Shown: positions 1 through 23,370 of the stretch, piece after piece
Position numbering within the stretch: position 1 is the first letter of the stretch
Layout: the number at the start of each line of letters is the position of its first letter
Assembly (NCBI GenBank): GCA_942491345.1
Contig: CALOAN010000044.1
Coordinates: 32,072-96,071, forward strand
DNA from: an uncultured actinomycete
Lineage (GTDB): Bacteria; Actinomycetota; Acidimicrobiia; Spongiisociales; UBA5794
Reading direction: 5' to 3'
DNA length: 64,000 nt
Program-made: the position numbers and the translations under genes
The notes under the pieces: generated by a model
What the model was told of the DNA's origin: nothing
What the model saw: only the letters and a program-made list of their open reading frames with translations
Database searches by the model: none

Positions 1-771
1 ATGGCCGATCGCCTCGTTGTCATGAGCCGGACGGCGGCAGAACGGCTCATCCTGCGCTACGGCATCGACGCGGAACGCATCGATGTGATCCCTCACGGAG
101 TCGACACGCGCTTTGCCGGCCCTTCCCTGGTCAATGGTGACCGACCCCTCGTCCTCACGTGGGGATTGATCGGCCCGGGCAAAGGTTTGGAGTCCGTGGT
201 CGAAGCGTTCGCCGGTTTGCTGGATCTGGATCCGCGTCCGCGCTATCTGATTGCGGGGGCCACTCATCCAAATGTGCGTGCGGACTCGGGCGAGGCCTAT
301 CGAGAGAGCCTCATCTCTTTGGTCGACCGCTTCGGAGTCGAAGGCCTGGTCGAATTCGACGACCGCTACCTCGATCGAGCATCCCTTGCCCGCTTGGTAC
401 GCAGCGCCGACCTCGTGGTCCTTCCCTACTCATCGGTCGAACAGGTGACCTCGGGCGTTCTGGTGGAAGCAATCGCAGCCTCCAAGCCGGTGATCGCCAC
501 CCAGTTTCCCCATGCCGTGGAGCTGCTCTCCGGAGGAGCCGGCATCACCGTTCCTCACGGCGACTCCGGGGCGTTGAGCGCTGCGCTCCGACGCCTCTTG
601 ACGGATCAACGTCTGACATCCCGAATGGGCCGGGAAGCTCGCCGGATTGCCGACGGATGGTATTGGCCCGCGATTGGCCGACGATTCGGGTCGATGATGT
701 CGGGCCTCGAACAAACCGACCACGTCGGCCACCAGCAAGCGTCGTTGGAGGTGGCCCGTGTCGCCGGATGA
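1..771 (+). CDS. Glycosyltransferase family 4 (GT-B), C-terminal part; 5' end lies outside the window
   Basis: ORF is open to the window edge. It carries GT-B C-terminal half motifs (PLVLTWGLIGPGKGLESVVEAF; ADLVVLPYSSVEQVTSGVLVEAIAASKPVIAT) and strong GC3 bias. Confidence 0.8.
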   Translation: MADRLVVMSRTAAERLILRYGIDAERIDVIPHGVDTRFAGPSLVNGDRPLVLTWGLIGPGKGLESVVEAFAGLLDLDPRPRYLIAGATHPNVRADSGEAYRESLISLVDRFGVEGLVEFDDRYLDRASLARLVRSADLVVLPYSSVEQVTSGVLVEAIAASKPVIATQFPHAVELLSGGAGITVPHGDSGALSAALRRLLTDQRLTSRMGREARRIADGWYWPAIGRRFGSMMSGLEQTDHVGHQQASLEVARVAG

Positions 772-1852
772 ACGTGGCGAGGCCGCCGCTCATCCGTCTG
801 GCTCCACGTACCGGTCCGCACGGTCGGAGCTGCCGCGCCCGGAATACACTCATCTGCGCCGGCTCACCAACACGACCGGGCTCTGGGAACACGCACATAT
901 CCTGACCCCCCGCGTTGAGCATGGGTTCTGCACCGACGACAATGCGCGTGGCCTTCTCGTCGTGTCGCGAGTGGCGCCACCGTCGACCGAACAGTCGGAC
1001 CTCGCCGCGATATACCTCAGTTTTGTGCTCGATGCCCGCACCGACACAGGCCAGTTTCACAATCGTCGCGACGCCGACGGAAGCTGGATCGACGAAGTCG
1101 GCAGCGACGACAGCCAAGGTCGAGCGTGGTGGGGCCTCGGGACCGTCGCACGATCGGGTCCGGTGCCATGGATGCGGGAGGCGGCCTCCGACGCCTTCGC
1201 CTCCTGCAGCTCCTTTGAGTCCCCGCACTTGCGTGCCAACGCATACGCTGCCCTCGGTGCCGCCGAGATGCTCGCCGCCGATCCCGGCAGCGCCGTCGCA
1301 GGCGAGCTCCTCGAGCGAACCGCTGGGAAGATCGCCGCCGCCGCCAGCGACAGAATCCCCTGGCCGGAAGCTCGCCTCACCTACGACAACGCTCGTCTAC
1401 CCGAAGCCCTGTTGGTGGCGGGCGCCGCTCGCGGTGACCGCCACCTGATCTCGGTCGGCATCCGTCTCCTGGAATGGCTCGTTCGAGCCGAAACCAACCA
1501 CGACCACTTCAGCTTCACCCCGGTCGGCGGATGGGCGCCGGGCGGCCCGCGCCCTGCGTTCGACCAGCAGCCCATCGACGCTGCGGCGATGGCCGAGGCT
1601 TGCTACCGGGCGTGGACCATTACCCACAAGACCGTATGGCGGGAACGAGCCCTGGACGCCGCACGATGGTTCGTGGGACAAAACGACACCGGCATGGTGC
1701 TCTACGACTCCGAAACCGGCGGCACCTGTGACGGCCTGATGCAACACTCGGTCAACGAGAACCGGGGAGCCGAGTCAACGCTCGCGGGAATCGCCGCACT
1801 CCAAGTTGCTGCGCTGTGCTCCATCGGTGACCTCGGGACAGCAGCCTATTGA
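758..1852 (+). CDS. Conserved hypothetical protein embedded in the GT4/GH130 glycan cluster
   Basis: GTG start at 758 overlaps the upstream gene by 14 nt. Its TGA (1850-1852) overlaps the next ATG (TGATG). Codon bias is coherent. I cannot name any motif. Confidence 0.65.
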   Translation: MSPDERGEAAAHPSGSTYRSARSELPRPEYTHLRRLTNTTGLWEHAHILTPRVEHGFCTDDNARGLLVVSRVAPPSTEQSDLAAIYLSFVLDARTDTGQFHNRRDADGSWIDEVGSDDSQGRAWWGLGTVARSGPVPWMREAASDAFASCSSFESPHLRANAYAALGAAEMLAADPGSAVAGELLERTAGKIAAAASDRIPWPEARLTYDNARLPEALLVAGAARGDRHLISVGIRLLEWLVRAETNHDHFSFTPVGGWAPGGPRPAFDQQPIDAAAMAEACYRAWTITHKTVWRERALDAARWFVGQNDTGMVLYDSETGGTCDGLMQHSVNENRGAESTLAGIAALQVAALCSIGDLGTAAY

Positions 1853-3330: not shown

Positions 3331-4374
3331 TCACCCCGCGGAGAGGATCTGGTGGTAGAGCGCCAGGTAGTCGTCCACCATCCGTGCCGCGTCGAATCGT
3401 CGCTCGATTGAGCCGCGAACGCCACGGCGGTCGAGCTGGCCGGCATCGGCTGCAGCATCGACCGCTTCGTCGATGCTGGACACCAGGTATCCGTTGATTC
3501 CCGGCCGGATGATCTCGGGCATCGAGCCTCGCGGGTGTGCGATCACGGGCGTCCCACACGCCATTGATTCCACCACGCTGAACCCGAACGGCTCATCGAA
3601 GTCGATCAGGTGCAGCAGCGCTCTGGCGTTGCCCAGGACTTCTTGGCGGCGGCGCGGCCCGACTGGCCCCAGGTAGGTGACGCGGTTCCCGTCGACATGC
3701 GGCTCGACTGCGGTTTCGAAATACTCGTGGTCCTGGATGATCCCGGCGATCACCAACGGGATCCCCGCCTGTTTCGCCACCTCGATAGCGGTAGCGGTCC
3801 CCTTGTCGGGATGGATCCGCCCGAAGAAGACCAAGGAGTCTCCGCCAGGGCCGACCTCGAACGATCCGACATCAATGCCGTGGTGAATCGTGGCCGCGTA
3901 TGGAAGCGCCGGATGGCGGTCCGCGTCGCTGATCGCCACGTACTGGACGCGATCTGCGTATTCGAGATACGCGGGCAAGGTGGCGTCGGAGGCGAATCCG
4001 TGGATGGTGGTGACCACCGGCGTATCGACGAGCCGCGTGTAGGTGAGCGGGAGGAAATCGAAGCTGTTGTGGATCAGATCGAAATCGGCGGCGCGTTCGA
4101 ACACCGCGGCGATGTGCAGCGCCTCCCACGTCTTGGCGTCGAGTGTCGGGTCTTCGGAGTACCCGGTGGGTGCAACGCCCACCAGCCGGGCCGAGGTGAC
4201 CGAATCGGCGGTCGCGAACAGCGTCACGTCAACACCCCGGTCGACCAACCCTTCGGTCAGGAGCGAGGCAAACTGCTCCCACGGCCCGTAGTGCCGGGGA
4301 GGTACCCGCCACGAGATGGGGGCGAGTACCGCGACCCGTAGCCGATCTGAGCTGGGACCCAGTTGGTCAGGCAA
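3331..4374 (-). CDS. Glycosyltransferase family 4
   Basis: GT4-type N-terminus (LRVAVLAPISWRVPPRHYGPWEQ) and E-x7-E region (EPFGFSVVESMACGTPVIA). The 417-aa track ORF reaches 4584 but its first ~70 aa look non-coding. TTG at 4374 is proposed as the start and is uncertain. Confidence 0.8.
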   Translation of the reverse strand: MPDQLGPSSDRLRVAVLAPISWRVPPRHYGPWEQFASLLTEGLVDRGVDVTLFATADSVTSARLVGVAPTGYSEDPTLDAKTWEALHIAAVFERAADFDLIHNSFDFLPLTYTRLVDTPVVTTIHGFASDATLPAYLEYADRVQYVAISDADRHPALPYAATIHHGIDVGSFEVGPGGDSLVFFGRIHPDKGTATAIEVAKQAGIPLVIAGIIQDHEYFETAVEPHVDGNRVTYLGPVGPRRRQEVLGNARALLHLIDFDEPFGFSVVESMACGTPVIAHPRGSMPEIIRPGINGYLVSSIDEAVDAAADAGQLDRRGVRGSIERRFDAARMVDDYLALYHQILSAG

Positions 4375-5977: not shown

Positions 5978-7363
5978 TCAGACGGTCTTGGGAGCTGAGG
6001 TCGATTCGTTTGCCAGGACGTAGAGGCCTACCGGACCTGCGACGTTCTTGAGGGTCCGCTCGCCGACGAACGAGGCATCGAAGCCTTCCTTGTTCTTCAG
6101 GTTGTCGTAGACCGCCTTCGTGAATCCGATTTCGCCCGCGTTCACCTCAGATTGGATGCGGGAGGCGATATTGACTCCGTCGCCGTGGACATCGCCGTCC
6201 GTGAGCACAACCTCGCCGAGGTGAATGCCGATCCGGACTTCGAACCGACCGTCGCGGCCGACGGCGGATTGGATTTCCTGTGCGCAGGCGACTGCGCTCG
6301 ACACAGACTCGAAGCTGGCCAGGATGCCGTCACCAAGCTTCTTGAGCAGCGTTCCGTTGTTGCGGGAGATCGCAGCGGTATGGATCTCGTCGTTGGCTCG
6401 AACGATTCTGAGCGTCGCCTCCTCGTCGGCTCCCATGAGCGCGGTGTAGCCGACGATGTCCGAGAACAAGATGGCGGCGAGCCTGCGAGCCGGACCCTTC
6501 TGGCTCGGAGTCCGGATCGCTTCGTCGAGGTAGTGACGCTTGCCCCGTTGGGCGTTGTGATACTCGTCGGGCGACAAGATGTTCTCGTCGAGCTCGAAAT
6601 CTGTTCGCAGCAGGTTGTCGATGAACGCGTCGAGGCGAGCTCCACCTTCTGCGGCGACCTCGCGGATGAAACGGGTATCGACATTGATACAGACGGCGCC
6701 GACAAGTCCATACTCGGCACGGAAGATCGGGACGGTGGTGCACTTGAATTGGCGCGACCCGATGTTCAGTTCGTAGTTGACCTTGTCGGTGCCCTGTTGG
6801 CGCCGAGTCTTCAGGTCGAGAACGAGGTTCGTCGCACCACTGCCGACACTGCGTCCTGTGACTTCGCCGTTCTCGATGGCCACCAGCGACCGTGACGGGT
6901 TGACGAGATTGTGGAGGAGAATCTCGATTCCGGTATTCGGAACCGACCGACCGAGCTGACGCACGATGCGCGCGTAGTTCTCGAGGAATACCGTGTTGTC
7001 GTTCACCACGTCGTCGCCCCGGTACTTCGCGTACAGGTCTTTGTAGTTCTGGAGCGACTCGGTGGGGAAGGTGTCTCTGACCAGGTTCTGCTCGCCAATG
7101 ACGATCAGCTCTTTTGCAGCACGCTCGTTCTGTTCGCGGAGCAACTGCGAAACGGCTGCGTTGAACCTGTCGGCGTCGAACTCGACGTGTCCCCGATCAT
7201 TGACGACAAACGGGTAGAAGTCGTACTCCTCGAGGCGGAGTTGGCTCACGTCCGGGGCCTGTGCCGGCGGTGTTCGGGTCCTTCGACCCAGGATGTACGC
7301 GCCAACGCCGACCACCACGACGACGACAACAACGACGATGAATAGGAACAATGTCAGAGCCAT
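5978..7363 (-). CDS. Membrane-anchored class III adenylate/guanylate cyclase with a YheO-like PAS sensor domain
   Basis: N-terminal TM helix with a poly-Val run. Central part has IEILLHNLVNPSRSLVAIENGEVTGRSVG (YheO-like PAS). C-terminus has LAAILFSDIVGYTALMG...KKLGDGILASF...RIGIHLGEVV...GDGVNIASRI (cyclase homology domain). Confidence 0.85.
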   Translation of the reverse strand: MALTLFLFIVVVVVVVVVGVGAYILGRRTRTPPAQAPDVSQLRLEEYDFYPFVVNDRGHVEFDADRFNAAVSQLLREQNERAAKELIVIGEQNLVRDTFPTESLQNYKDLYAKYRGDDVVNDNTVFLENYARIVRQLGRSVPNTGIEILLHNLVNPSRSLVAIENGEVTGRSVGSGATNLVLDLKTRRQQGTDKVNYELNIGSRQFKCTTVPIFRAEYGLVGAVCINVDTRFIREVAAEGGARLDAFIDNLLRTDFELDENILSPDEYHNAQRGKRHYLDEAIRTPSQKGPARRLAAILFSDIVGYTALMGADEEATLRIVRANDEIHTAAISRNNGTLLKKLGDGILASFESVSSAVACAQEIQSAVGRDGRFEVRIGIHLGEVVLTDGDVHGDGVNIASRIQSEVNAGEIGFTKAVYDNLKNKEGFDASFVGERTLKNVAGPVGLYVLANESTSAPKTV

Positions 7364-8412: not shown

Positions 8413-9026
8413 TTTGTGGTTTCTTCGTGGTTGTCTTGGTCACCGGCAGGCCACGGGATTTCGACGATGAGGTCCCACAGGTACTCATCGTCGATCGGGC
8501 CTCCGGAGAGAAGTAGGCGGTAGTAGATGGGGCCGAGAACGTGATCCAAGATCAGGCTGATCTCTCGATCTGATGGGTCCGGGCCGACGATCCGGCGCAC
8601 GAGGCCGGCGGCGATGCTGCGACGTTCAGCCCAGAACTGACGGAACGCTGAAGCCAACTCCGGGTTGCGTGCGGACTCCCCAACGATGCCGGCCAGGATC
8701 GCGCCGAAGTCGGAGCGCGTGTTGAGGCGCACGATGTCTTGGAGGAAGACGAACAGGGCGTACCGGGGGTCGTCATCCGCCCGAACCGGAACGTTCTCGA
8801 CGGCAAGGACTCTGAGGACTTGCTGAACGAGCAACTCCTTCGACTTCCAGCGCCGATACAGCGTGTCTTTGCCGACACCGGCCGTCCGGGCGATCTCATC
8901 CATCGACGTCCCGGTGAAACCCTTGCGCGCCAAGACCGCCCGGGCCGATTCCAGGATGGCTCGGTCGGCAGCAGGGTCACGCGGGCGTCCTCGCCGCGGT
9001 CGCACAGAGGTTGGATTGGTCAACAC
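8409..9026 (-). CDS. TetR family transcriptional regulator
   Basis: N-terminal HTH (ILESARAVLARKGFTGTSMDEIARTAGVGKDTLYRRWKSKEELL-like) followed by a helical ligand domain. Confidence 0.85.
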   Translation of the reverse strand: MLTNPTSVRPRRGRPRDPAADRAILESARAVLARKGFTGTSMDEIARTAGVGKDTLYRRWKSKELLVQQVLRVLAVENVPVRADDDPRYALFVFLQDIVRLNTRSDFGAILAGIVGESARNPELASAFRQFWAERRSIAAGLVRRIVGPDPSDREISLILDHVLGPIYYRLLLSGGPIDDEYLWDLIVEIPWPAGDQDNHEETTK

Positions 9027-9150
9027 CCTCTATACATTACCATACAGTCCTGTTTGATAACTACCTTTCTCGGATTCTTCTCACAGTGCAGATCGCGGGT
9101 GACGCCGGATCGAGGCCCACGATCAATGGTTCGGGACCGGTCTCATCGTC

Positions 9151-9218
9151 GCCCCCTCCCGCCCTCGCTCCGCTCGGGCACCCTCCCCCAGCTTCGGTGG
9201 TGGAGGGGAAGACGAAGG
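9151..9218 (-). repeat. Copy of the GC-rich hairpin repeat family (type B module), reverse orientation
   Basis: The reverse complement reads ccttcgtcttcCCCTCCACCACcgaagcTGGGGGAGGgtgcccgagcggagcgagggcgggagggggc. This is nearly identical to 24854-24911. It abuts the stop codon (9220-9222) of the minus-strand gene. Confidence 0.8.
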
Positions 9219-9219
9219 C

Positions 9220-9936
9220 TCAGCAGCTGAGCGCTCGGAGCGAGATATCGACGTGCAGCTTGGCATGACCTGCATACTCGTGCGCATCATCCAACGAGTC
9301 TGAGTCCAGCGTGAAGGTCGCCCAGCCGACGACCCGCATGGGATGGCTCGCGAGTGTCGGCATCGTGTTGTCGTCCGGCCGCCACTCGTCGATGGCCGTC
9401 AGCATCGCTCCCCACTCTGCGCCGGGATCAGCCCACGTTCCGCCAAGCACATCGCGCCCGACACATCGGTTCGCAGACAGCGGGATGGCAATGCCGGCGG
9501 GGGTACCGTCCATGCCGGGGAGCAGACCCACGGCCGACTGGCCGCCGACAACACCATCACCGCTGCGGTCTCCGTAGCCGGGACCGTTGGGTCCGACAAT
9601 GAGGTTCGCGGCCGCCTCTGCTGCCTCACGGGCAGCCTCGACGGTTGACGCGTCTCGCCAGGCGGCGACCGCCTCTTCGACGGCAGCCATCCGCTCGGAG
9701 AACAATGCAACATCCGCATCAACCACGGTCACCGTGGTGCCAGTTCCACCTTCAGGCGAAGGCGGTAGTTCCGCGCCATCGACCGCGCTCGTGGTCGATG
9801 CGCCACCGCATGCCGAAAGGCCGATTGCCAACGCTGCAATCCACACACGAGTGAACACCGCTCTCACAATCGTCCGCTGCCGACGCATGGGGCGATGTCG
9901 CACGCTCGTCGGGTCGATGATGGCCCTTGACGGCAA
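9220..9936 (-). CDS. Putative lipoprotein of unknown function
   Basis: Signal peptide with lipobox (ALAIGLSAC). The start may instead be the internal Met at 9888. No catalytic motif recognised. Confidence 0.6.
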   Translation of the reverse strand: MPSRAIIDPTSVRHRPMRRQRTIVRAVFTRVWIAALAIGLSACGGASTTSAVDGAELPPSPEGGTGTTVTVVDADVALFSERMAAVEEAVAAWRDASTVEAAREAAEAAANLIVGPNGPGYGDRSGDGVVGGQSAVGLLPGMDGTPAGIAIPLSANRCVGRDVLGGTWADPGAEWGAMLTAIDEWRPDDNTMPTLASHPMRVVGWATFTLDSDSLDDAHEYAGHAKLHVDISLRALSC

Positions 9937-10702: not shown

Positions 10703-10781
10703 GCGCCTTTGATAGCCCTGAGCGTCTTCCTACCGGACCACTTCCTCGGTGTACTTTGCCGGGAATCAGAGATCCGCCGCC

Positions 10782-11693
10782 ATGGTTCACTCACGTGTGA
10801 CCGAACGAATCGCCTTTGTGCTTGGTGCCGGCGGAGCCTATGGCTGGGTATTCCACGCCGGCGTTCTCCACGGGGTCGAACGCGCCCTGAAGGCCCCGCC
10901 GAATGATGCGGACCTGATCATCGGGACGTCGGCCGGTTCCGCGATCGGTGCCGCGATACGAGCCGGAATCGGAACGCGCGACCTCGCCGAGGTGGTCTCA
11001 CGCCCGCCGAGCGAAGAAGACCGGAAGCGGATGAGGAACGAGCTCCGTGACGCCCGCAAGACATTGATCCCGTTTGCACCGCGCCTCGTGCAGCATGCCC
11101 TCAGCCAAGACCGAACCGGCATGCTGGGTGTTGCCGGCCTTCTTCCACCGGGTATCTTCCCAACCGCGTGGCTCGCTCGCTTCCCCGGCATGGAGCACCA
11201 TGCCCAGTGGCCTGAGGGGCTGTGGATACCAGCGGTCTCGGCCACTACCGGCGACGTCGTTGTGTTCGGCCGCGACCGACGCGATATTGATGTGCATCGT
11301 GCGGCACAGGCCTCGTCAGCGGTCCCCGGCATGTTCCAGCCACACGTAATCGATGGGACGGCCTACTTCGATGGAGGCGTGGTGTCCCCAACACACGCCG
11401 ATCTTGCTGCCGAGATCGATCCCGATCTCGTGATCATCTCTTCCCCGATGACCCGCCCTGGACGGCGGCTCACCTCCGGTCATGCACGAAAGCGCCTAGC
11501 CGAGGAAGTCGCCGCTCTCGAGACGGGAAACGCTCGCGTCGTCACCATCGAGCCGGATGCCGAGACCGGTCGGCTCGCCGATGGCTTCCCACGGTCGAGC
11601 GGTTCGAATGCGTCACGCATCTTCGAATCGGCGGCGTCCCTCGCCGAGCAATCGGTTGGTGCATCTCGAGAACCTCAACCCGTCGGCTCCTAG
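10782..11693 (+). CDS. Patatin-like phospholipase
   Basis: Oxyanion loop (GAGGAYGWVFHAGVL), nucleophile elbow (GTSAGS), and catalytic DGG (YFDGGV). Confidence 0.8.
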   Translation: MVHSRVTERIAFVLGAGGAYGWVFHAGVLHGVERALKAPPNDADLIIGTSAGSAIGAAIRAGIGTRDLAEVVSRPPSEEDRKRMRNELRDARKTLIPFAPRLVQHALSQDRTGMLGVAGLLPPGIFPTAWLARFPGMEHHAQWPEGLWIPAVSATTGDVVVFGRDRRDIDVHRAAQASSAVPGMFQPHVIDGTAYFDGGVVSPTHADLAAEIDPDLVIISSPMTRPGRRLTSGHARKRLAEEVAALETGNARVVTIEPDAETGRLADGFPRSSGSNASRIFESAASLAEQSVGASREPQPVGS

Positions 11694-12828: not shown

Positions 12829-14532
12829 TCACTCCAGAGGTATCACCTCAAAGCCACGCCCCTCAGCCCGATCCACGATCACGACGTGCTGGTGGCCTTC
12901 GGTGCCCAGGGCGGCGAGGACATCGCCGATCGAATCCACATCAATCGGCGGAGCAGCAGCGTGGAATCTACGAACACGGATGTCCGCGGCCTCGAGAGCG
13001 CTCACCATCTCCTGACCGGCGGCGGTGACGAGGATCACCTCACGAACCGTCGGCCTGACCACCTTTGGCGTCTCGGACCGGTCGTGACGCACGACGGTGA
13101 AGTGGTACCACGCCACGGCGCCGGCGGTTGCGAGCAGTGAGATTGGGACCGCCACAGCGTCGAGCACTTCTGCCACGCCGGTGCCGTCGAGGATCGCTTG
13201 GACGATGAGGTAGACGAGCACAATCAGATTCACGAGAGCGACCAGCCCGCTCACGCCGAGCACGATGAAGAGGTAGGTTCGGCGGGTCGTTGATTGCGCC
13301 TCGTCGACTCCCTGGCGCACGCGCTCGCGCTGCGCCCGCGACCAGTAAATCCCCCACAGCGGCCCTCCGACAGCGAGGAGTGTCAGAGCAACGGCGATCA
13401 CGCTGCGATCGGATCCGGTTATCTCCGTGCCGGCGATAGCCCATAGGGCATAGGTCAGGAGCGTCGCCAGTCCGCCTGCGGCGACCACGAGGCCGGCACC
13501 GGAAAGGAGATAGTCGTAGACCCGATCGACTTCGGTCCGATCACGCTCAGTGCCGCCATCGAGGACATGACGGTGATACGCCCACGCGGCCACGCCGGCA
13601 GCCACGACGCCGAGCGCAGCCGGGACGACCTCGAAGTGCTCCGTCGCCGTGCCGGATGGGTCGGCGAGCAGCCACTCCAGTACGCGAAATACAGCGGTTC
13701 CGACCCCGGCCACGACCAAGAGAACGCCACTCAGCACACCCGCCAGCAGGACGTAGGCATTCCACAGTCCCGAGCGCTCATCGTGCACCGTGGTGCGCAG
13801 CCAGTACCACCCCCACACCACCGCGCCCACCGCGCACGCGGCGAGGGGACGTACGATCTGCTCGGCCGTCGGACCGATAGGCGCGATGTCGACAACCGTG
13901 TCGTACAACTCGACGAGGACGTTGGCGGCAGCGACGGTGCCGGCCGAAAGCAGCACTACAAGGCCTACAAACGACCCCATCAGGTGCTCAATGCGCAGGT
14001 TGGGCTCGTAGCCCTCGCGCTCGGCAACCCACCAATGCACAGCCCACACGGTTCCCCAGATCACCACGTTCACAAGAGCCGTGCGGTCGAGCCCATCGCC
14101 GACCAGCAGATCACCGACAAGCGTGATGAGCAAGGTGACCGTCGTTACCAGAGAGCCGAATAGAACCAGGGTGAGGTAGAGAGCCCATCCGGGAGAACGC
14201 ACTTCCGCCGGATCGTCGCGCAGACGTCGCCGGGTGAACATCGCGAGCACGATGAAGGCGGGCGCCGCAACAACCACAAACGCGATCGACAGAGCGACCG
14301 CTGCGGTGTCCGTGGTGATCTGCTGGGCTGAAGTTGCTGCCGCGTCAACCAGTCCCGCCAGCCCGACACACGAGAGCACCAGCGTCAACAGCATCATGAG
14401 ATACCGGAACATGCGGCGGGCGGCAATACCTTCGCCGTCAGCTGTCGTACGGTCACGGCCGTCGATCGCCCGCACGATGAGCACGACGATTCCCAGCAGG
14501 ACCAACAAAGGCAGCAGTGCAAAGAACGCCAT
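12829..14532 (-). CDS. Polytopic membrane protein (about 14 TM) with a small soluble C-terminal domain, unknown function
   Basis: Repeated hydrophobic helices. The C-terminus is about 75 aa and soluble (VILVTAAGQEMVSALEAADIRV...VVIVDRAEGRGFEVIPLE). ATG 14532 overlaps the upstream stop (TGATG). An alternative ATG lies at 14559. Confidence 0.68.
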   Translation of the reverse strand: MAFFALLPLLVLLGIVVLIVRAIDGRDRTTADGEGIAARRMFRYLMMLLTLVLSCVGLAGLVDAAATSAQQITTDTAAVALSIAFVVVAAPAFIVLAMFTRRRLRDDPAEVRSPGWALYLTLVLFGSLVTTVTLLITLVGDLLVGDGLDRTALVNVVIWGTVWAVHWWVAEREGYEPNLRIEHLMGSFVGLVVLLSAGTVAAANVLVELYDTVVDIAPIGPTAEQIVRPLAACAVGAVVWGWYWLRTTVHDERSGLWNAYVLLAGVLSGVLLVVAGVGTAVFRVLEWLLADPSGTATEHFEVVPAALGVVAAGVAAWAYHRHVLDGGTERDRTEVDRVYDYLLSGAGLVVAAGGLATLLTYALWAIAGTEITGSDRSVIAVALTLLAVGGPLWGIYWSRAQRERVRQGVDEAQSTTRRTYLFIVLGVSGLVALVNLIVLVYLIVQAILDGTGVAEVLDAVAVPISLLATAGAVAWYHFTVVRHDRSETPKVVRPTVREVILVTAAGQEMVSALEAADIRVRRFHAAAPPIDVDSIGDVLAALGTEGHQHVVIVDRAEGRGFEVIPLE

Positions 14533-14981
14533 CACGCCTCCCAGCAGTAGATTGGCCACGGAACCTCAGCGATCAGCCAGACGTCACCGGCCCGCTCGAG
14601 GATCAGCGTATCTCGGAATGAGTACGGCTCCCCCAGGAACACGCTGGAAGCGGATCGCTCAGTGATTTCCACCGTCACCGCGATGCGGCCGGCGTCAGGT
14701 TCGGTATCGAGGATCACAACACGGAGGCTGTCCGCGCCGTCCCGAATCTGGCTCAGGCCCGCATCGCAGCGCTCGACGAGATCCGGCATCAGAAAGCGCT
14801 CCGCGTCGACCCGGCTTCGATCGACGACCGCTTGGAAGTACCCCTGGACTGCCGCCTCGGGTGTTCCTGCGTCGAACTGGTCCGGACCCTGAAGCGCGAG
14901 CACGAGCGCCACCACAACGATCACCCCGATTGCTGCGACGATGATCCCGAGGACGACGCCACTACGCGTGATCCCTTTCAT
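14532..14981 (-). CDS. Single-pass membrane-anchored protein with a small (NTF2-like?) ectodomain
   Basis: MKGITRSGVVLGIIVAAIGVIVVVALVLAL is the TM anchor. The ectodomain begins PEAAVQGYFQAVVDR. The track ORF extends to 15149 but that Arg-rich extension looks non-coding. Confidence 0.58.
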   Translation of the reverse strand: MKGITRSGVVLGIIVAAIGVIVVVALVLALQGPDQFDAGTPEAAVQGYFQAVVDRSRVDAERFLMPDLVERCDAGLSQIRDGADSLRVVILDTEPDAGRIAVTVEITERSASSVFLGEPYSFRDTLILERAGDVWLIAEVPWPIYCWEA

Positions 14982-15387
14982 ACCACCAGTGTTGTCCTCG
15001 TCCAGAGGGTCGTCTAGGGCCGGCAGCCACTCCCCGCGAAGCCGAGCCCGGGAACGCAAGCTTGGGCGGAACCAGCAGCTCGTCGGCGCGGAGGCAAACC
15101 GCCGCGCACAACCAGCCCTGAACGGCATCACTCGGCTGCCGGCACGCACGAAGACAAATAGTCACTCGCGTAGTCACATCTGGCGCGTACGGTGAAGCAG
15201 GCTTGGCGACGGAGACGACGAAGGCAGCCTCATCCGAGGGAAAGGGAGGCTGCAAGTAGACCGTTGAAACCGATCACAACGCGCCTCACCCACCGCGCCC
15301 TTCGCTCCCTACCACACGACCGGGTATCCACCTCGGTCACCTGCTGAGCGAAGCACCGCTGGATGAGGAGCCGGGGAGGACACCACC

Positions 15388-16044
15388 ATGCCGACACCAG
15401 GACAAGAACTTGCCAGCATCGACTTTGAATCGATGATCGGCGGGCCGCTGATTGCGGTCATCCACGCCCAGGCCCAGGCCGCTATGTCGACCGTCAACTT
15501 CATCAAGGAGGTCGGCTTCAAGGCCCCGACCACCGAGCAGGAAGCAGGCGGAGATACCGAGACCAACGACCCGATCTACGTCACCTTCACCTATCCAAAG
15601 GAGCTCAGCCCATTCGTACCAGCCGTTGCAGCCGACCCGAGCGCGACCCCGCCCGTCGTGGCGTCGCCGGCCGTTCCAGCGGTCTTCGAGGATCAGAACC
15701 TGAAGGTACCGATCCTCACGATGCTGCCGATCCCATTCATCCGCATCGACGAAACCACAGTCGACTTCAACGCGAAGATCAACTCGGTCGAGTATCGCAA
15801 GACGGTGACCAACCTCAAGATCAACGCATCGACTGAGGCGAAGGCCGGCTGGTTCTTCGGTTCCGCGAAGCTCAAGGTGTCGACGGCATATCAGCGCACT
15901 TCAACGCAGGGCAACTCCGTGAACCGCACGTATTCGCTTGCGGTCCACGTGAAGGCAGTCCAGGACGAGATGCCCGCCGGGATGGAGAAGATCCTCGGAA
16001 TCCTCGAGGATGCCATCACGTCGACACCAGCTGAGGCCGCCTAA
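15388..16044 (+). CDS. Gene A of the unknown four-gene cluster: DUF2589-like protein (218 aa)
   Basis: GGGGAGGA site before the ATG. N-terminal helix is IGGPLIAVIHAQAQAAMSTVNFIKEVGF. A Pro-flanked beta segment reads LKVPILTMLPIPFIRIDETTVDFNAKI. C-terminus is YSLAVHVKAVQDEMPAGMEKILGILEDAI. The family name is from memory. Confidence 0.75.
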   Translation: MPTPGQELASIDFESMIGGPLIAVIHAQAQAAMSTVNFIKEVGFKAPTTEQEAGGDTETNDPIYVTFTYPKELSPFVPAVAADPSATPPVVASPAVPAVFEDQNLKVPILTMLPIPFIRIDETTVDFNAKINSVEYRKTVTNLKINASTEAKAGWFFGSAKLKVSTAYQRTSTQGNSVNRTYSLAVHVKAVQDEMPAGMEKILGILEDAITSTPAEAA

Positions 16045-16075
16045 GAACGCGAGCCGCACGGCGTTGGGAGGGACC

Positions 16076-16756
16076 ATGACAAATCTGGGTGACTACTTGG
16101 GACAGTTGATGTCTGAGGTCGTGATTGCACGCGTGCACGCCGACCTCGAGTCGGTCCGGGTGGCTGAGCTCTACGCCAGCCACCCACTCCTGCGTCATAT
16201 GCCCATACCGCGGGTTCGGCTGCCGGAGATCCAGATGGAGGTACCCGTCGTAATCGACGGATCTGGATCTCCGGGACCGACCGAATCTCCTCGAGGTGGA
16301 GCCAGCATCTCAGACGGTCGCAAGCAGTTCGACAAAGTGCTGGCGACCCACCTGCGCAACAGCAAGGTCAGGTTGCGAGCGAACCAGCGAGAAGCTCTAG
16401 TCAAGGCCCTAGACGCCGAAGCTCAACGACCCGACCTCCCGATCGAAATCTCCGTCGACACGAACCGGTTCGCAGACCGGTTCACGAACGTAGCCATCGA
16501 CGTACTCGGCGAGTCGCTGACCGAAGAGAAGATCAACAGCGTCAAGGCCGGCCTCAGGGACGACGCCCGGCTCGCCTTGCTGGCCGCCCGCACGGCGCCA
16601 CCGCGAGTGACGGCACTGGTGGAGACCAGTGCCGTGCGTGAGGCAGGACCCGAGGACAAGATCACGAGGCTCCGGCTGACGATTCGCGAAGAGTCGATGG
16701 AACTCACGACAATCGAATCCGACGGTGAGACGACCGAACGCCTCGTACCGGAGTAG
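16076..16756 (+). CDS. Gene B: second, divergent DUF2589-like protein (226 aa)
   Basis: GGGAGGGA site before ATG 16076. N-terminal helix is LGQLMSEVVIARVHADLESVRVAELY. It is followed by MPIPRVRLPEIQMEVPVVI, the same layout as gene A. Confidence 0.7.
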   Translation: MTNLGDYLGQLMSEVVIARVHADLESVRVAELYASHPLLRHMPIPRVRLPEIQMEVPVVIDGSGSPGPTESPRGGASISDGRKQFDKVLATHLRNSKVRLRANQREALVKALDAEAQRPDLPIEISVDTNRFADRFTNVAIDVLGESLTEEKINSVKAGLRDDARLALLAARTAPPRVTALVETSAVREAGPEDKITRLRLTIREESMELTTIESDGETTERLVPE

Positions 16757-16762
16757 GACGAC

Positions 16763-17344
16763 ATGCTTCGCATCGTCAACCTCGAGGAGTTCCATCGGCT
16801 CCTGCTCCGCGTGCCGGCGCTTGTCGACGAGCTCGAAGAACGCACGGCCGACGCACCCGGAGCGGTGCGCAGCTGGCTCATCGAAGTCGAGGGTGCCCTC
16901 GAGAACAACCGGATGCCGCTAGCGGGGAACATAGCCGGCCTTCGCGCGCGCCTCGACTCCGCCTCAAGGGGCGCGGTACCCGGCGGCGTCGTTCTCACCG
17001 GCTCGGTCACAAAGCGAAAGGTCCGCTACGCCGTCGCTGCCGAGGTGCTGAAGAATGCCGCTGACACCATCGCTGCGGAGCTCGAGGCTGACGGAGCGCG
17101 TATCGATGAAGCCGACCTCCTCGCCCGCCAGCTTGTCGTCGCTGCGCAGGTGAAGGGCCTGGTGAACGGGCCGCCGTCTCGGGCGGACCATGCCGATACG
17201 ATTCAGGCGCTCTGGACGGCGGTTCTCTCCGAACCCGAGATCGGGCCGGGAGCCGTTCACCTGCTCAGTTTGGTGGGGCCCAACGATGCTGTCATCGTTC
17301 TCGACCGTGCCGTCACCCGGGACGTTTGGTCGGGTCGTTCGTGA
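16763..17344 (+). CDS. Gene C: all-helical 193-aa protein, no recognisable motif
   Basis: ATG lies 6 nt after the gene B stop. The sequence is Leu/Ala/Glu/Arg-rich with helical periodicity and has coherent GC3. Confidence 0.62.
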   Translation: MLRIVNLEEFHRLLLRVPALVDELEERTADAPGAVRSWLIEVEGALENNRMPLAGNIAGLRARLDSASRGAVPGGVVLTGSVTKRKVRYAVAAEVLKNAADTIAAELEADGARIDEADLLARQLVVAAQVKGLVNGPPSRADHADTIQALWTAVLSEPEIGPGAVHLLSLVGPNDAVIVLDRAVTRDVWSGRS

Positions 17345-17475
17345 TCGCCGTGGCGGCCGGCGCGTACTCATTCGGACACCCGTCAGTGAAACACGATCCG
17401 TGCCCGGCGTCGTTCAGTAGTTTTGGAGATGCACTGAATCGCCGCATGCGGAGGATCGAATAGGGAGGGCGAGTC

Positions 17476-20400
17476 GTGACCACGTTCAACGACCCAGACT
17501 TCCAGGCGCAGGACTACGGCGAGACGATGCCCGAGTTCGCCGACGCCGGCATCGTCCGCATTCCCGCAGGCGTCGTCGAGCTTCGGGTGCACGGCGTTGC
17601 CGGCGGCACGCCGGAGCAGAACCTGGGCGACCCGCATCCAATCAAGATCAGCGGCGACAACCAGGCAGGCGTCTACCGACGACGATCGAAGCTGAACTCG
17701 GGGCCGCAGCGTACGGTTGAGGCATACAACTGGTCGTCCATGAATTCCGGGCGCACCGCACGTGCATTCTGGCTCGTGTTGTTTCCGTTCGCGGCCGTGA
17801 ACTTCGCTGGTTGGCTCCTGCCGGCCGACATGAGAGAACCTCGACCAATCGGGAGCACGGACTCCGAGCGGAAGACACCGTGGGAGAAGGTGAAGAGCTC
17901 CCCTGTGAACCCGTGGAACAATCGCATGGTTGCCCAGATGTGTGTGCGCGGGATGGCACTCGCGATCACGGCGATTGTCATGCTCGGAATCGCAACGATC
18001 AGCGTCGACATCGTCGGGCTCCAGTGCGGAGCGGAGAACGCCTGCTCACAGCCGTGGTGGTTCGCGTGGTTTGAACCAATTCGGACCTCGTCGATCCTCG
18101 ACGGACAGCCGACCCGCTTCGCCATTGTCGGTACGCTCGTCCCGGTCGCGGCTCTTGGAGGACTCTGGCTTCTCAGCCGACAATCGTCCACCTACGACCA
18201 ATACGGGGTCAGGTCAAGAAACGAGGCTTCCGGACCTTCGGAACGCTCGAAGGGGCCGGTCGGTAGGCACGTCGATACGATCCGGCTCGACACGGTCGAC
18301 TTCTGGCAGTCGCCCGACGCTGCCTACATCCAAGGATGGCTCCACACATCGGTGGCCTTGGGAACCCTCGCCGTCATGCTGGCAGCTTCGATGCGAGTCC
18401 TTGCACCGAACTCGCCCCACCATGGAACGTTCCTCTTTCTGGCAATCGCAGCGGCTGGTTTGCTCGTGGTGCTCGTGGTGTTCGTGGGCATGGTCAGCTT
18501 CATGTCGCAGATTCCGCGATCCTGGCTTCGTAGATCGGATTCTCCGAGATGGCGTCCACGACAAACCTGGATTCCGTCCCTCGTGGCTGGTTTCCTGCTG
18601 AGCTGGGTTGCCCTGCTCGGCTGGGGCGCCAAGGGGACGCTGGACACTGGATCACCCGTACTCGAACCGATCCGCAACGGCCTCATCGTCGCAACACTGC
18701 TGGGAGGTTCCCTGATATTCGCATTGGCGATGCTCGTCGGCGCATGGCGAGTGATGACGACCATCATCGCTGTGGGGCTCATGTGGTACTTCGTACTCGC
18801 GCCGCAGAATGGAGTCGTAGGCGAACCGCCGTTCGTTGTTGATGTCGGAGGAGCCTGGGCCTGGATCGTCGCTGAGGTGTTGGCCGCCGCTGTGTTCCTT
18901 GCGATCGTCTGGTGGCGGTCCAACGCGCAGAACCCCTTGTGGTGGCGATCGACGCCATCGCGGGTCGACGAAGCACACCGTCACGGCTTGTTGTGGATCG
19001 TCGGATCGGCCGGCGTACTCGCGGGGATCGGGATGGGGGCGGATGCCCGCAATGACGGGAACCCATTGATCGTCTTCGCCGTCGCCACGTCCGTTGTGCT
19101 GGTGTTTCTGCTGGTGTCGTTCTCGATGCGCTTGTCGATCGGACGAGCACAGCGTCGGCTCGACGCTCCCGAACCCGGGACCATGCGGTCAGGCACGACG
19201 TTCGTCATGGCGGCAGTCGCGATGTGTTCCATCCTTGCCATGGTGGCGAGCACGACGGTGTGGATCTCCAAGGCGCTCGGGGATGCCGTTGCTCACTCCG
19301 GTGTGACCCAGGTCGGCGCAGGCCAGATCGAATACCCGGCTGAAGCCGGGTGGTTCGCGCTCGCTGCGTTCGTCGGTTTCGTGGTCCTGTTCGGGATAAT
19401 CGCCATCCGGATCGGCACCCTGCGTTGGTTCCGATGGAGGAACGACGTCGCCAAAGGCATCTGCGAGGAATACGACGTGGTACCGCCGCCCGCTCTCAGC
19501 GACGAGCCGCCGAGGTGTGAGCCGCTTCGCGATCCCGCCACCCAGGACGTGGGCGACCACTACGGCTGGAGGCTGAAGTACGCAAAGCGGATCCGCACGC
19601 GGCGCCTGTGGGCCAACCTCATCGACGAGATCGACTGGATGATCACATCCGCGGTGATGGCGACCCTGGCCGCCCTTGGCGCCAGTGTTGTTGCACGGAT
19701 GCGAGACGAACAACCCGGAGGACACGTCGACGATGCGGTTGCCATCGCCACGTGGGTGCTGACCTTCCTCGCGATCGCTGTGTTCTTCCTGGTCAGGTCC
19801 GCACGCGACGACCGCCAGCTGCGGGGAACCGTGGGCATCCTGTGGGAGGTCATGGGGTTCTTCCCGCGGCGGTTCCACCCGTTGGCTCCGCCGTGCTACT
19901 CGGAGCGAACCGTGATCGAACTGAGGAACCGGGTCATCGAGTACACGAAAGCCGACGACGACGGCGGGAAGATCATCCTCGCCCACAGCCAGGGAACAAT
20001 GCTGACAACCGCAGCCCTGCTCAGCCTCAACGGGCCGCCACCGACGATCCCGGCACCGAAACAGGCGGTGCCGAAAGGATCGGAGCTCGACCATCTGGCG
20101 TTTGTGACCTACGGATGCATGCTTGAGCGGCTGTTCGGGCGCGCATGGCCCGACCAGCTGCAGAAGCAGTATCTGGTCAACCTCAAGGCACGAATCGAGC
20201 ATGGTCCGAACGGCCCGAAAGAGTGGGCGATGTCGGACACGCCACTGGCGTACCCAACGCCGAACGGACCAACAAGGTGGATGAACTTTGGCCGCTACAC
20301 GGACTATCTCGGTGGCCGTGTCTTTGCGCCGCTCCAGCCGAAGCCAACGCCAAACTCGAGATTCGGCGAGTGGGATGTCGACGTGCGGCCCCGGGACGAC

Positions 20401-20592
20401 ATCATGTTCCAGGATCCGACCCGCCGTTGGCGTTTCCTCGGCGAAACGACCGCCGCTCGTGCCTGGCTCCACTCGTTCAACTACGAGTCGGACGCTGAAG
20501 ACTCACGCTTTCGGTCACACGTGTGGGAGTGGGCACGAAGGTTCGCCCAGGAATCGGCAGACTCCGCCGACGAATCCCCTCATTCTGACTGA
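17476..20592 (+). CDS. Gene D: 1038-aa polytopic membrane protein with serine-hydrolase (alpha/beta-hydrolase/lipase-like) motifs
   Basis: GTG start is preceded by GGGAGGG. N-terminus has VELRVHGVAGG (HG at nt 17590-17595). About 15 hydrophobic helices follow. The C-terminal soluble domain has KIILAHSQGTMLTTAALL (Ser codon at 19987-19989). Confidence 0.8.
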   Translation: MTTFNDPDFQAQDYGETMPEFADAGIVRIPAGVVELRVHGVAGGTPEQNLGDPHPIKISGDNQAGVYRRRSKLNSGPQRTVEAYNWSSMNSGRTARAFWLVLFPFAAVNFAGWLLPADMREPRPIGSTDSERKTPWEKVKSSPVNPWNNRMVAQMCVRGMALAITAIVMLGIATISVDIVGLQCGAENACSQPWWFAWFEPIRTSSILDGQPTRFAIVGTLVPVAALGGLWLLSRQSSTYDQYGVRSRNEASGPSERSKGPVGRHVDTIRLDTVDFWQSPDAAYIQGWLHTSVALGTLAVMLAASMRVLAPNSPHHGTFLFLAIAAAGLLVVLVVFVGMVSFMSQIPRSWLRRSDSPRWRPRQTWIPSLVAGFLLSWVALLGWGAKGTLDTGSPVLEPIRNGLIVATLLGGSLIFALAMLVGAWRVMTTIIAVGLMWYFVLAPQNGVVGEPPFVVDVGGAWAWIVAEVLAAAVFLAIVWWRSNAQNPLWWRSTPSRVDEAHRHGLLWIVGSAGVLAGIGMGADARNDGNPLIVFAVATSVVLVFLLVSFSMRLSIGRAQRRLDAPEPGTMRSGTTFVMAAVAMCSILAMVASTTVWISKALGDAVAHSGVTQVGAGQIEYPAEAGWFALAAFVGFVVLFGIIAIRIGTLRWFRWRNDVAKGICEEYDVVPPPALSDEPPRCEPLRDPATQDVGDHYGWRLKYAKRIRTRRLWANLIDEIDWMITSAVMATLAALGASVVARMRDEQPGGHVDDAVAIATWVLTFLAIAVFFLVRSARDDRQLRGTVGILWEVMGFFPRRFHPLAPPCYSERTVIELRNRVIEYTKADDDGGKIILAHSQGTMLTTAALLSLNGPPPTIPAPKQAVPKGSELDHLAFVTYGCMLERLFGRAWPDQLQKQYLVNLKARIEHGPNGPKEWAMSDTPLAYPTPNGPTRWMNFGRYTDYLGGRVFAPLQPKPTPNSRFGEWDVDVRPRDDIMFQDPTRRWRFLGETTAARAWLHSFNYESDAEDSRFRSHVWEWARRFAQESADSADESPHSD

Positions 20593-20841
20593 CCGATTCA
20601 CAACGCGCTCGATCATCGCCGCCCGTCAATCGCTTGGCGTCATATCGGCGCGGCCGAGAACGCCCCTGGTGTGGCTCGACAAGCGGCGGGAACAGAGCCG
20701 GCGAGCTCAGAGTCGTGTGCCGCTCCGGACGAGTTCGCGGTCGGTCGCAGCGGCTGTCCTGACAGGCCGCGGTCCTTTTGCCTTGAGTTGGCGTGACGTA
20801 TCGTCGATGGTTCGAGGGCACGGCAACAGGAAGTGGTGGAA

Positions 20842-22041: not shown

Positions 22042-23370
22042 GTGCCTGAGACTCGATATGCACGGAGCGGGGACGTCAACATCGCCTATCAGGTGGTCGG
22101 TGATGGCCCGACCGACATCGTCTACGTTCCTGGATGGGTCTCGAATGTCGAGCTGATGTGGGACGACCCCGGTCTCGCAAGCTTCCTCAGGCGGCTCAGC
22201 TCGTTCGCCCGGCTGATCACCTTCGACAAAAGAGGCACCGGAGTGTCGGATCCTGTTCCGGTCGACAACCTGCCCGACTTCGAAACGCGGATGGACGACC
22301 TGCGCGCCGTGATGGACGCGGCCGGCAGCCGCAGCGCCACCATCTTCGGACACTCCGAGGGCGGCACTCTCTCGATCCTCTTCGCTGCGACACACCCCGA
22401 ACGAACGGATGGACTCATCCTCACCGGTTCCTATGCGAAGCGCATCCGATCCGACGACTACCCATGGGCACCAACCGCCGAAGAGCGCGCCCGGGAAGTC
22501 GAAAACGTCGCGGAGACCTGGGGACAGATCGACTGGCTGGAAGAGGTAGCACCCAGCCGGTCACACGATCCGGCGTTCCAGGCATGGTTCAGCCGTTTCC
22601 TGCGAATGTCGGCCAGCCCACGCGCCGCAGCCGCTCTCCTCGAAATGAACTCGGCCGCCGACGTCCGAGGGACTCTTGCAGCCGTCACCGCCCCCACGTT
22701 GCTGCTGTATCGGCAGGACGACCGGGACGTCAACATCGAAGAGGGCCGCTACATCGCGAACGCCATCGAAGGGGCACGCTTCGTCGAACTCCCCGGAGCC
22801 GACCACGTCTTCTGGGCGGGCGACTTCGAACCGCTGCTCCAGGAGATCGAGGAGTTTGTGACCGGCCGGCGCGGATCGTCGGACCCCGAGCGGAGGCTGA
22901 CAACCGTCCTATTCACGGACATCGTCGACTCAACGCGGAATGCCGCCGAACTCGGTGACCTCAAATGGCGCCAAGTCCTCGAGCGCCACAATCGGCTGAT
23001 CCGGAACGAACTCGCCAGGTGGAGCGGTGTCGAAGTCTCAACAACCGGAGACGGATTCCTCGCGACGTTCGACGGCCCGGCGCGGGCGATCAACGGTGCC
23101 CTCTCGATCGCAGCAACGGTCCCCGATCTCGACATGCACGTGCGCTGCGGCGTCCACACCGGGATGGTGGAGGTCGTCGGAAGCGACGTGGCCGGCCTTG
23201 CCGTCCATATCGGAGCGCGGATTGGGTCCCTTGCGCGGCCCGGCGAAGTCCTCGTGTCCAGCACCGTCAAGGACCTCGTCGCAGGATCGGGCTTCAGCTT
23301 CGAGGACCGCGGCACCCACATCCTCAAGGGCGTGCCGGACGAATGGCGGGTCTACGCCGCGCGCCGGTAG
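22042..23370 (+). CDS. Alpha/beta-hydrolase domain fused to a class III adenylate/guanylate cyclase domain
   Basis: N-terminal half has GHSEGG nucleophile elbow and ADH. C-terminal half has RLTTVLFTDIVDSTRNAAELGD...TTGDGFLATF...RCGVHTGMVE...GLAVHIGARI. Confidence 0.85.
   Translation: MPETRYARSGDVNIAYQVVGDGPTDIVYVPGWVSNVELMWDDPGLASFLRRLSSFARLITFDKRGTGVSDPVPVDNLPDFETRMDDLRAVMDAAGSRSATIFGHSEGGTLSILFAATHPERTDGLILTGSYAKRIRSDDYPWAPTAEERAREVENVAETWGQIDWLEEVAPSRSHDPAFQAWFSRFLRMSASPRAAAALLEMNSAADVRGTLAAVTAPTLLLYRQDDRDVNIEEGRYIANAIEGARFVELPGADHVFWAGDFEPLLQEIEEFVTGRRGSSDPERRLTTVLFTDIVDSTRNAAELGDLKWRQVLERHNRLIRNELARWSGVEVSTTGDGFLATFDGPARAINGALSIAATVPDLDMHVRCGVHTGMVEVVGSDVAGLAVHIGARIGSLARPGEVLVSSTVKDLVAGSGFSFEDRGTHILKGVPDEWRVYAARR

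Follow-up and report, generated by a model that had tools for sequence, protein, structure and literature searches.

The closest described relatives of the locus presented here are the proteins of the Pfam family DUF2589 (PF11655), whose genes form tandem sets in other genomes as well, e.g. AF0414-AF0417 of Archaeoglobus fulgidus. The DUF2589 literature that we searched contains two incidental mentions of expression only, and no member with a function or a solved structure was found in it; in Archaeoglobus, DUF2589-related genes respond to growth substrate (PMC3949148). We examined a four-gene locus at positions 15388-20592 of a 64,000-nucleotide stretch of DNA from an uncultured actinomycete of the class Acidimicrobiia (contig CALOAN010000044.1; the whole stretch is referred to as the window). 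Its first gene, A, encodes a DUF2589 protein and is followed on the same strand by genes B, C and D, the latter encoding a large membrane protein. An initial annotation, made by reading the sequence, had taken the four genes for a single system. Our comparative survey indicates that A, B and C very probably constitute a three-gene unit from which D is separate, and the explanation that we favor overall, with reasonable rather than full confidence, is a self-contained A-B-C cassette next to an independent lipase-like gene.

Compared with the DUF2589 family at large, protein A lies above the PF11655 threshold, and the genes of the family are also adjacent to one another, in sets with unannotated partners. 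However, the subfamily of A is distinct and far more conserved, has a fixed internal insert and is always accompanied by the same B and C partners. The PF11655 match hence names A without explaining its function.

Gas vesicles are a self-assembling structure made from small clustered paralogues (GvpA, GvpJ and GvpM), one subunit of which is hyper-conserved. They are a lead only: A, B and C are likewise small soluble proteins encoded by adjacent related genes and devoid of enzymatic motifs, and the conservation of A between Bacteria and Archaea greatly exceeds that of its partners B and C. The differences are that no sequence or fold similarity was found, that the cassette has three genes only, and that A-B-C are known here from genes alone.

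For D, the described proteins to be considered are class 3 lipases, cutinases, PGAP1/DUF676 proteins and Tle3 of the type VI secretion system. The likeness resides in the nucleophile elbow (AHSQG here, GHSQG in the wider family), in the ordered and invariant Ser, Asp and His, and in an N-terminal strand ending in HG. Unlike these hydrolases, D has its presumed first strand (residues 34-44) and its catalytic domain (residues 780-1038) parted by about 680 residues with some 14-16 hydrophobic segments, and its family, of 71 clusters, is of Actinomycetota type only and has no Pfam model. As for defense systems with a membrane or lipase effector, the locus shares with them a compact same-strand cluster that ends, in the genome of the window, in a membrane-embedded hydrolase; it differs in that no PADLOC family is matched, that the hydrolase is dispensable and clade-specific, and that the core genes A-B-C are hyper-conserved and not consistently located in defense islands.

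Since no link to a described system was found in the libraries and literature searched, we rate the cassette as outside the known kinds. Newness here means that no characterized relative was found: in databases the proteins figure as DUFs, and a good structure of either A or C might yet show a known fold.

Results

Genes of the locus

The locus contains four genes, with product lengths in amino acids (aa):

15388-16044, plus strand: gene A, 218 aa; soluble, acidic DUF2589 protein; first gene of the A-B-C cassette.
16076-16756, plus strand: gene B, 226 aa; soluble; constant partner of A.
16763-17344, plus strand: gene C, 193 aa; soluble; third constant member of the cassette.
17476-20592, plus strand: gene D, 1038 aa; GTG start; polytopic membrane protein.

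These four plus-strand open reading frames (ORFs), their spacing and their Shine-Dalgarno (SD) sequences were all found as the initial annotation had described them. The intergenic gaps measure 31 nucleotides (nt) between A and B, 6 nt between B and C and 131 nt between C and D, and each start is preceded by a purine-rich SD, namely GGGGAGGA 5' of A, GGGAGGGA 5' of B, GGAGTAGGA 5' of C and GGGAGGG 5' of D. Each of the four has many database homologues; they are therefore real genes and not chance ORFs. A longer alternative ORF for B opens at 16010, and position 16076 was retained as the true start because every homologue begins with M-[PT]-x-L-G-D-Y. Base composition is uniform across the region, and the GC content at third codon positions (GC3) of D, 0.77, is that of the neighboring genes.

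A conserved A-B-C triad

Scanning metagenomes with a B profile yielded 80 loci, none of which carries D. Wherever the contig reaches, A lies immediately upstream of B and C immediately downstream, with two exceptions that are considered in the Discussion. The order is fixed in the 32 complete triads, whose A, B and C proteins are 215-263 aa, 226-233 aa and mostly 186-216 aa long, respectively; C proteins of 256 and 292 aa occur in two copies carrying frame errors. In 27 of these 32 triads B and C are 6-7 nt apart, the full range being 2 to 12 nt. In all five loci seeded with A, genes for proteins of 225-232 aa and then 189-191 aa come directly after A, their identity as B and C having been checked by alignment for L102 and L103. 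The hosts of the triad include Actinomycetota, Desulfobacterota, Chloroflexota and one Methanocellales archaeon. The contig of the latter, L102, is genuinely from Methanocellales and carries MtrA, MtrH, ribosomal protein L37e and an LSM protein.

The end of B and the start of C are intertwined at the following site:

16745-16765, plus strand: B-C junction, CCG GAG TAG (end of B), GACGAC, then ATG (start of C).

The Pro-Glu codons that close B, part of its invariant C-terminal LVPE, double as the SD of C. The same bases encoding the end of B and the SD of C suggests translational coupling, and B and C are probably coupled in this way.

No conserved fourth gene of the cassette emerged from the survey: a DUF922 protein, a protein of about 187 aa and a PG_binding/VanY-like protein recur in only three to five loci each. 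The DUF922 protein adjoins the cassette in five loci (L020, at 6682-7233, L029, L042, L059 and L073), and a 302-aa protein with PG_binding_1 and VanY-like domains is encoded directly 3' of C in three (L072, at 3382-4290, L074 and L086). A few metagenomic copies contain internal stops or a split C (A in L094, B in L045, C in L085, L087 and, at 8706-9476, L018), which are assembly errors or occasional decay; a Logan contig that codes for a B protein identical to that of L018 carries an uninterrupted gene of 190 aa 3' of B.

Evolution of the cassette

Over the 378 pairs of complete triads, A proteins share a mean pairwise identity of 0.76 and never less than 0.60, as against means of 0.49 for B and 0.43 for C, whose divergence is ordinary, and the pairwise divergences of the three proteins are correlated (Spearman coefficients of 0.71, 0.76 and 0.49). 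The GC3 of the cassette ranges from 0.32 to 0.95, in line with that of the host. Where four-fold-degenerate residues are identical, third-codon identity is 14-39% in four of five distant copies and 51% versus the high-GC L066, while the A proteins in those five comparisons are 65-81% identical, and 79% identical versus the archaeal copy. GC3 tracking the host and saturated synonymous sites therefore point to selection, not recent transfer, and purifying selection on A is extreme. All three proteins of the cassette are acidic, with neither a signal peptide nor a membrane-like segment.

Constraint at the level of A is usually confined to proteins held by dense, invariant interactions. Purifying selection of this strength is unexpected for a defense gene, being the opposite of what is seen in arms-race genes.

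Distribution of D

A search with a D profile gave 17 genome loci, with A-B-C upstream only in L001 and the tail of C at the contig edge in L002. D was found without A, B or C within up to 10 kb in L004, L005, L007, L008 and L010-L014, and D homologues of at most 58% identity occur without A-B-C. L112 has the order A-B-C-D, with a D 66% identical to that of the window, and L113 has a D that is 55% identical, with no C-like gene upstream; a partial ORF upstream of D in L113 was considered as a C homologue and rejected. No recurrent neighbor of any kind accompanies D in its relatives. Seen from the cassette, D is absent from about 90 A-B-C loci and stands beside C only in the window, L001, L002 and L112, all from one Acidimicrobiia subclade. 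The initial reading of the locus therefore holds in part: A, B and C belong together, with triad order and spacing kept, whereas D, missing from about 90 triad loci and alone elsewhere, is not a conserved member of the cassette.

The nearest relatives of the window are informative in this respect. A, B and C of L022 and L023 are 96-98%, 90-91% and 90-94% identical to their counterparts in the window, and the flanking genes are the same, with no D. In both, the gene for a DUF4352 protein begins about 125 nt 3' of the C stop codon; its upstream region is conserved alike whether C or D precedes it. The variable part is as follows:

17345-20764, plus strand: D-carrying segment, present or absent as a block; an unrelated spacer of about 55 nt takes its place in L022 and L023.

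In a neighbor-joining tree of concatenated A, B and C, the D-less L022 and L023 fall inside the clade of the D-bearing window, L001 and L112. From this nesting, D was most likely gained once beside the cassette and later deleted in that lineage. The gain would have taken place at the base of one Acidimicrobiia subclade, D having since been lost in some members with A-B-C left intact. A recent foreign insertion of D was rejected on account of its native composition and of the tree, which indicates a loss in L022 and L023 and not a gain in the window.

The C-D spacer of the window, L001 and L002 is unconserved save for a possible -10 box and the SD:

17418-17423, plus strand: TAnnnT hexamer TAGTTT, 52 nt upstream of the D start; TAGTTT, TAGGTT and TAGCTT in the window, L001 and L002.

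This hexamer, among the few conserved blocks of the spacer, may be a -10 element of D's own. Scanning the GC-rich region for promoters and terminators, and with Rfam, gave nothing informative.

Protein D

The 71 clusters of D homologues come from Actinomycetota-type or unnamed sources, and no Pfam domain is recognized in any of them. The protein starts with a short soluble N-terminal region, continues with about 14-16 hydrophobic segments (residues 97-776) and ends with a C-terminal hydrolase-like domain. Across 42 relatives down to 21% identity, H39-G40, H837-S838-x-G840, D943, D980-P981 and H999 are at least 90% conserved, and an alignment of the C-terminal domain by itself shows no variation at the Ser, Gly, Asp and His; Ser, Asp and His follow one another in canonical order. 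The corresponding codons are at 19987-19989 (S838), 20302-20304 (D943) and 20470-20472 (H999). With its hydrophobic segments and the expected motifs, including the conserved Ser838, D answers to the earlier description of a membrane-embedded serine-hydrolase-like protein.

Members of the D family give sub-threshold Pfam matches only (best E=0.0017), and the window D itself gives none. The recurrent ones are lipase-like alpha/beta-hydrolase families, namely Lipase_3, DUF3089, Abhydrolase_1, Tle3, DUF900, DUF676, cutinase and PGAP1. Compared with the PDB, the profile of the C-terminal domain returned 45 weak matches (E 0.1-2, best 0.11), which align on the GHSQG elbow and are nearly all cutinases, lipases or EDS1/PAD4 proteins. 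Among the best weak matches is PDB 8boz_A, a 658-aa entry named 'Transmembrane protein' (E=0.12), which could be a solved membrane-anchored lipase-like protein comparable with D.

From these motifs we consider D a likely lipase/cutinase-like hydrolase using Ser838, Asp943 and His999, and the role of Ser838 as the predicted nucleophile of this triad is well supported. The invariant N-terminal LRVHGVxGG probably corresponds to the first strand and the oxyanion-hole HG of the hydrolase domain, in which case D would be an alpha/beta-hydrolase interrupted by a very large membrane insertion. Such an enzyme would most likely cleave or transfer an acyl ester on a membrane lipid.

Protein A and the DUF2589 family

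The description of A as DUF2589-like was borne out, the protein matching PF11655 with 97.5 bits for a cut-off of 23 (E=1.3e-27) over model positions 2-152 of 154. Its homologues fall into 2120 clusters, and the best 120 of these 2120 are 78-95% identical to the query. These best 120 include copies named Methanocellales, Methanotrichaceae, Dehalococcoidia and Desulforhopalus, with identity remaining about 80% even in Methanocellales and Methanotrichaceae. A has an isoelectric point of 4.8 and no transmembrane-like segment. One stretch of its sequence stands out:

15844-15864, plus strand: codons of A residues 153-159 (A-G-W-F-F-G-S), a glycine-flanked aromatic stretch.

In an alignment of 49 sequences, A151, S159 and K161 are invariant, and G154, W155 and G158 are at least 90% conserved. 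The sequence pattern places this A-G-W-[LF]-[WF]-G-S stretch at a putative hairpin tip between amphipathic beta strands. It is a specific feature of the subfamily, no such conservation being seen in the wider DUF2589 family, which comprises 1891 clusters at 50% identity. The structural model of A has a predicted local distance difference test (pLDDT) score of 38.7, the underlying alignment being about 80% identical throughout.

More distant DUF2589 genes were seen as tandem pairs on plasmids of Streptomyces, Fulvitalea and Vibrio (L105-L107), with 25-32% identity and unannotated genes in between. The unannotated gene between the paralogues of the Fulvitalea plasmid was rejected as a B homologue, the comparison giving only E=0.26. 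Some DUF2589 members (P0321 and P0455) have weak Ig-like C-terminal extensions (Big_1, Big_11).

Proteins B and C

The homologues of B form 262 clusters, none with an assigned function; a copy of B with 100% identity is attributed by NCBI to an Acidimicrobiia metagenome-assembled genome. The C-terminal RLVPE is invariant among homologues, as are numerous charged residues (D6, E14, R19, D23, E25, R28, E31, H36, R40, R48, R73, E124, R177, E189, E205, R222 and E226). The AlphaFold2 model of B (pLDDT 69) combines a long helix at the N terminus with one strand, four helices and ill-defined strands at the C terminus, and a Foldseek search with this model against the PDB and BFVD brought up generic helical bundles only, nothing meaningful.

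B had been called a paralogue of A. The two have P-[IL]-L-x-x-[ML]-P-[IV]-P-x-[IV]-R-[IL] in common, and hhalign comparison of B with the A (DUF2589) profile gave E=0.006 at a probability of 6%. This improved to E=3.7e-4 and 36% with a broad DUF2589 profile made from 50%-identity representatives, and to E=1e-4 and 57%, over 76 columns including the N-terminal helix, after cutting the insert of A (residues 46-104), which is a post-hoc edit. B has no match to the Pfam DUF2589 model even at E<=1. A distant DUF2589 relationship of B is plausible but unproven; under it, B would share with A the N-terminal helix and hairpin module and have a helical bundle where A has beta strands.

C has no Pfam, NCBIfam, PADLOC or PDB match. 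In its alignment the mean column identity is 47%, and E43, R61 and R182 are among the invariant charged residues. That C might itself be a paralogue of DUF2589 proteins or of B was ruled out by profile comparison (E=0.24 and 0.7).

Searches for known systems and genomic neighborhood

None of A, B, C and D matched a PADLOC-DB v2 family at E<=1, and PHROG and NCBIfam searches gave no match for B, C and D. Sequence and profile searches of the PDB with A, B, C, full-length D and the broad DUF2589 profile returned nothing meaningful. The profile libraries, the PDB and the literature searched hence all agree with the initial statement that none of the four proteins has a characterized relative. B was not found in 2.9 million viral contigs, in which the A profile retrieved one relative of 45% identity. 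No member of the A subfamily appears in phage and plasmid records, whose DUF2589 relatives are only 25-32% identical.

The neighborhoods of the cassette were surveyed by simple ORF calls and tblastn, and the counts are given without statistics. Defense-like or mobile neighbors include an Eco57I-type methylase with a HATPase (L018), an integrase with PemK (L019) and HipA with Cas6 (L109); other copies are next to core genes, namely Tex and RsmJ, glutamate synthase and RtcB, or Mtr and ribosomal proteins. PccH is among the neighbors in L020. When all neighbors were compared with one another, none recurred in more than 5 of about 29 loci.

In the window, the neighboring genes encode a phospholipase of the patatin type, a membrane protein of family DUF5671 (opposite strand), a DUF4352 protein and an alpha/beta-hydrolase-cyclase fusion. 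The patatin-like gene (10749-11693, plus strand) is about 3.7 kb upstream of A; in L019, a 1245-aa patatin protein (13560-16684) is encoded 5 kb away from the cassette. A divergent pair upstream of A (12829-15149, minus strand) encodes the polytopic DUF5671 protein, of 576 aa, and a single-pass protein of 205 aa that matches DUF7550 weakly; only the close relatives L001, L022 and L023 keep this pair in synteny with the cassette. Two genes downstream of the cassette (22042-23370, plus strand), an Abhydrolase_1/Hydrolase_4 domain is fused to an adenylate/guanylate cyclase domain, which brings to three the lipase-type genes within 13 kb of the window (patatin-like, D and hydrolase-cyclase fusion). 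Hydrolase-cyclase fusions, 33-35% identical, also occur beside the cassette in L019 (5653-7026) and L030 (35-526, minus strand). This recurrence may be Actinomycetota synteny or a real association.

Discussion

The comparative evidence separates the four genes into a widespread triad and a lipase-like gene that joined it in one subclade. Several points weigh against this picture or its parts. At L081, A is inverted relative to B (169-516, minus strand, and 877-1200, plus strand), and at L090 there is no detectable C in the 346 nt 3' of B. The C-D adjacency, with a gap of 90-131 nt, is kept in four contigs even though their D proteins are only 66-75% identical, and one of these contigs, L112, has a different upstream flank. 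The assignment of D as a hydrolase comes without a match above any curated threshold. Regarding function, the idea of a complex or self-assembly draws on a conservation pattern and on analogy, which keeps it below even odds in our estimation, and the weak monomer model of A may merely reflect a shallow alignment of about 80% identity. L081 is the sole locus with A and B on opposite strands; its contig is 1.2 kb long and perhaps results from a rearrangement or a chimeric assembly.

Could the four genes nevertheless operate together, A and B as structural or sensor subunits, C as an adaptor and D as a membrane lipase effector, in the manner of abortive-infection or envelope-remodeling modules? 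They are on the same strand with short spacing, the composition of D is native (GC3 0.77), and because the C-D adjacency persists in four contigs, including one with another upstream flank, a link between D and the cassette keeps some weight. About 90 triad loci lack D, however, including the nearest relatives with the same flanks, and D is found elsewhere without the triad; the C-D spacer is unconserved, unlike the coupled B-C junction, and PADLOC offers no match. We therefore regard a four-gene system as very unlikely, and a functional link between D and the cassette confined to this clade as equally doubtful. An even lower probability is given to A-B-C alone being an anti-phage defense, abortive-infection or toxin-antitoxin-like selfish cassette that spreads horizontally. 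Its patchy distribution across phyla and domains and the presence of some copies near defense or mobile genes (L018, L019 and L109) would fit such a role. Yet no PADLOC or PHROG family is matched, the cassette is absent from plasmid and phage records and, save for the single DUF2589 relative of 45% identity, from the 2.9 million viral contigs, other copies sit among core genes, and its composition is fully ameliorated. The mixed and often housekeeping neighbors, together with the extreme purifying selection on A, make a defense or selfish role unlikely, and the defense or abortive-infection reading of the initial annotation is left without support. A housekeeping or physiological structure is more likely.

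We tentatively propose, as a possibility short of an even chance, that A, B and C form a structural hetero-oligomer, either a stable cytoplasmic complex or a larger self-assembly. The proposal stems from the higher conservation of A relative to B and C, from the habit of the family to occur as tandem paralogues, from the collinear N-terminal module shared by A and B, and from the lack of a catalytic signature and of transmembrane segments; moreover, the same sequence being kept in archaea and bacteria favors protein contacts over contacts with their differing lipids. The poorly defined beta strands in the monomer models of A and B were also counted toward assembly. In this scheme A would serve as the principal building unit, protein-protein contacts constraining nearly all of its residues; B, distantly DUF2589-like, would be its partner and have the N-terminal helix and Pro-rich hairpin module in common with it; and C would be a helical accessory subunit produced at a fixed ratio to B. 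The main rival to this assembly is a soluble, non-structural enzyme or regulator in which A is constrained by a universal partner such as the ribosome, a nucleic acid, a nucleotide or a cofactor, which we hold to be rather unlikely. The many invariant charged residues in B and in C agree with it, a sequence kept across archaea and bacteria fits a target common to both domains, and the DUF2589-related genes of Archaeoglobus respond to growth substrate (PMC3949148); however, the searches revealed neither a catalytic or nucleotide-binding motif of known type nor any Pfam, NCBIfam or PDB similarity that would indicate a function, there is no conserved metabolic neighbor, and A is conserved along almost its full length, including a Pro/Ala-rich loop, and not around a pocket. 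Finally, A might act on membranes, peripherally or by forming pores, through its amphipathic strands and the G-W-[LF]-[WF]-G tip, so that the cassette would remodel or permeabilize membranes. Hydrophobic and polar residues do alternate in residues 140-192, the glycine-flanked aromatic stretch is at least 90% conserved, envelope proteins (DUF922, PG_binding_1 with a VanY-like domain) are occasional neighbors, and a membrane lipase is encoded next door in the clade of the window. Against this, A has no signal peptide and no transmembrane segment, its sequence would have to suit the chemically different lipids of archaea and bacteria alike, and conservation of the aromatic stretch does not extend to the wider DUF2589 family; we deem membrane activity highly improbable.

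The comparative data reduce a vague operon to a testable three-gene cassette present in thousands of environmental genomes from both prokaryotic domains. They also carry a caution on method, as the tight same-strand spacing in one genome had suggested a four-gene system that they do not support. On its side, D defines an unmodelled actinobacterial membrane family in which a lipase-like domain is apparently split by a very large polytopic insertion. As for A-B-C, the most far-reaching version of the proposal, namely a previously unrecognized intracellular assembly (filament, sheet or cage) of Bacteria and Archaea, is an unlikely outcome in our view; if true, A would be among the slowest-evolving uncharacterized prokaryotic proteins, with almost its whole surface engaged in assembly contacts. 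A structure or a knockout of A-B-C could reveal a new cellular component.

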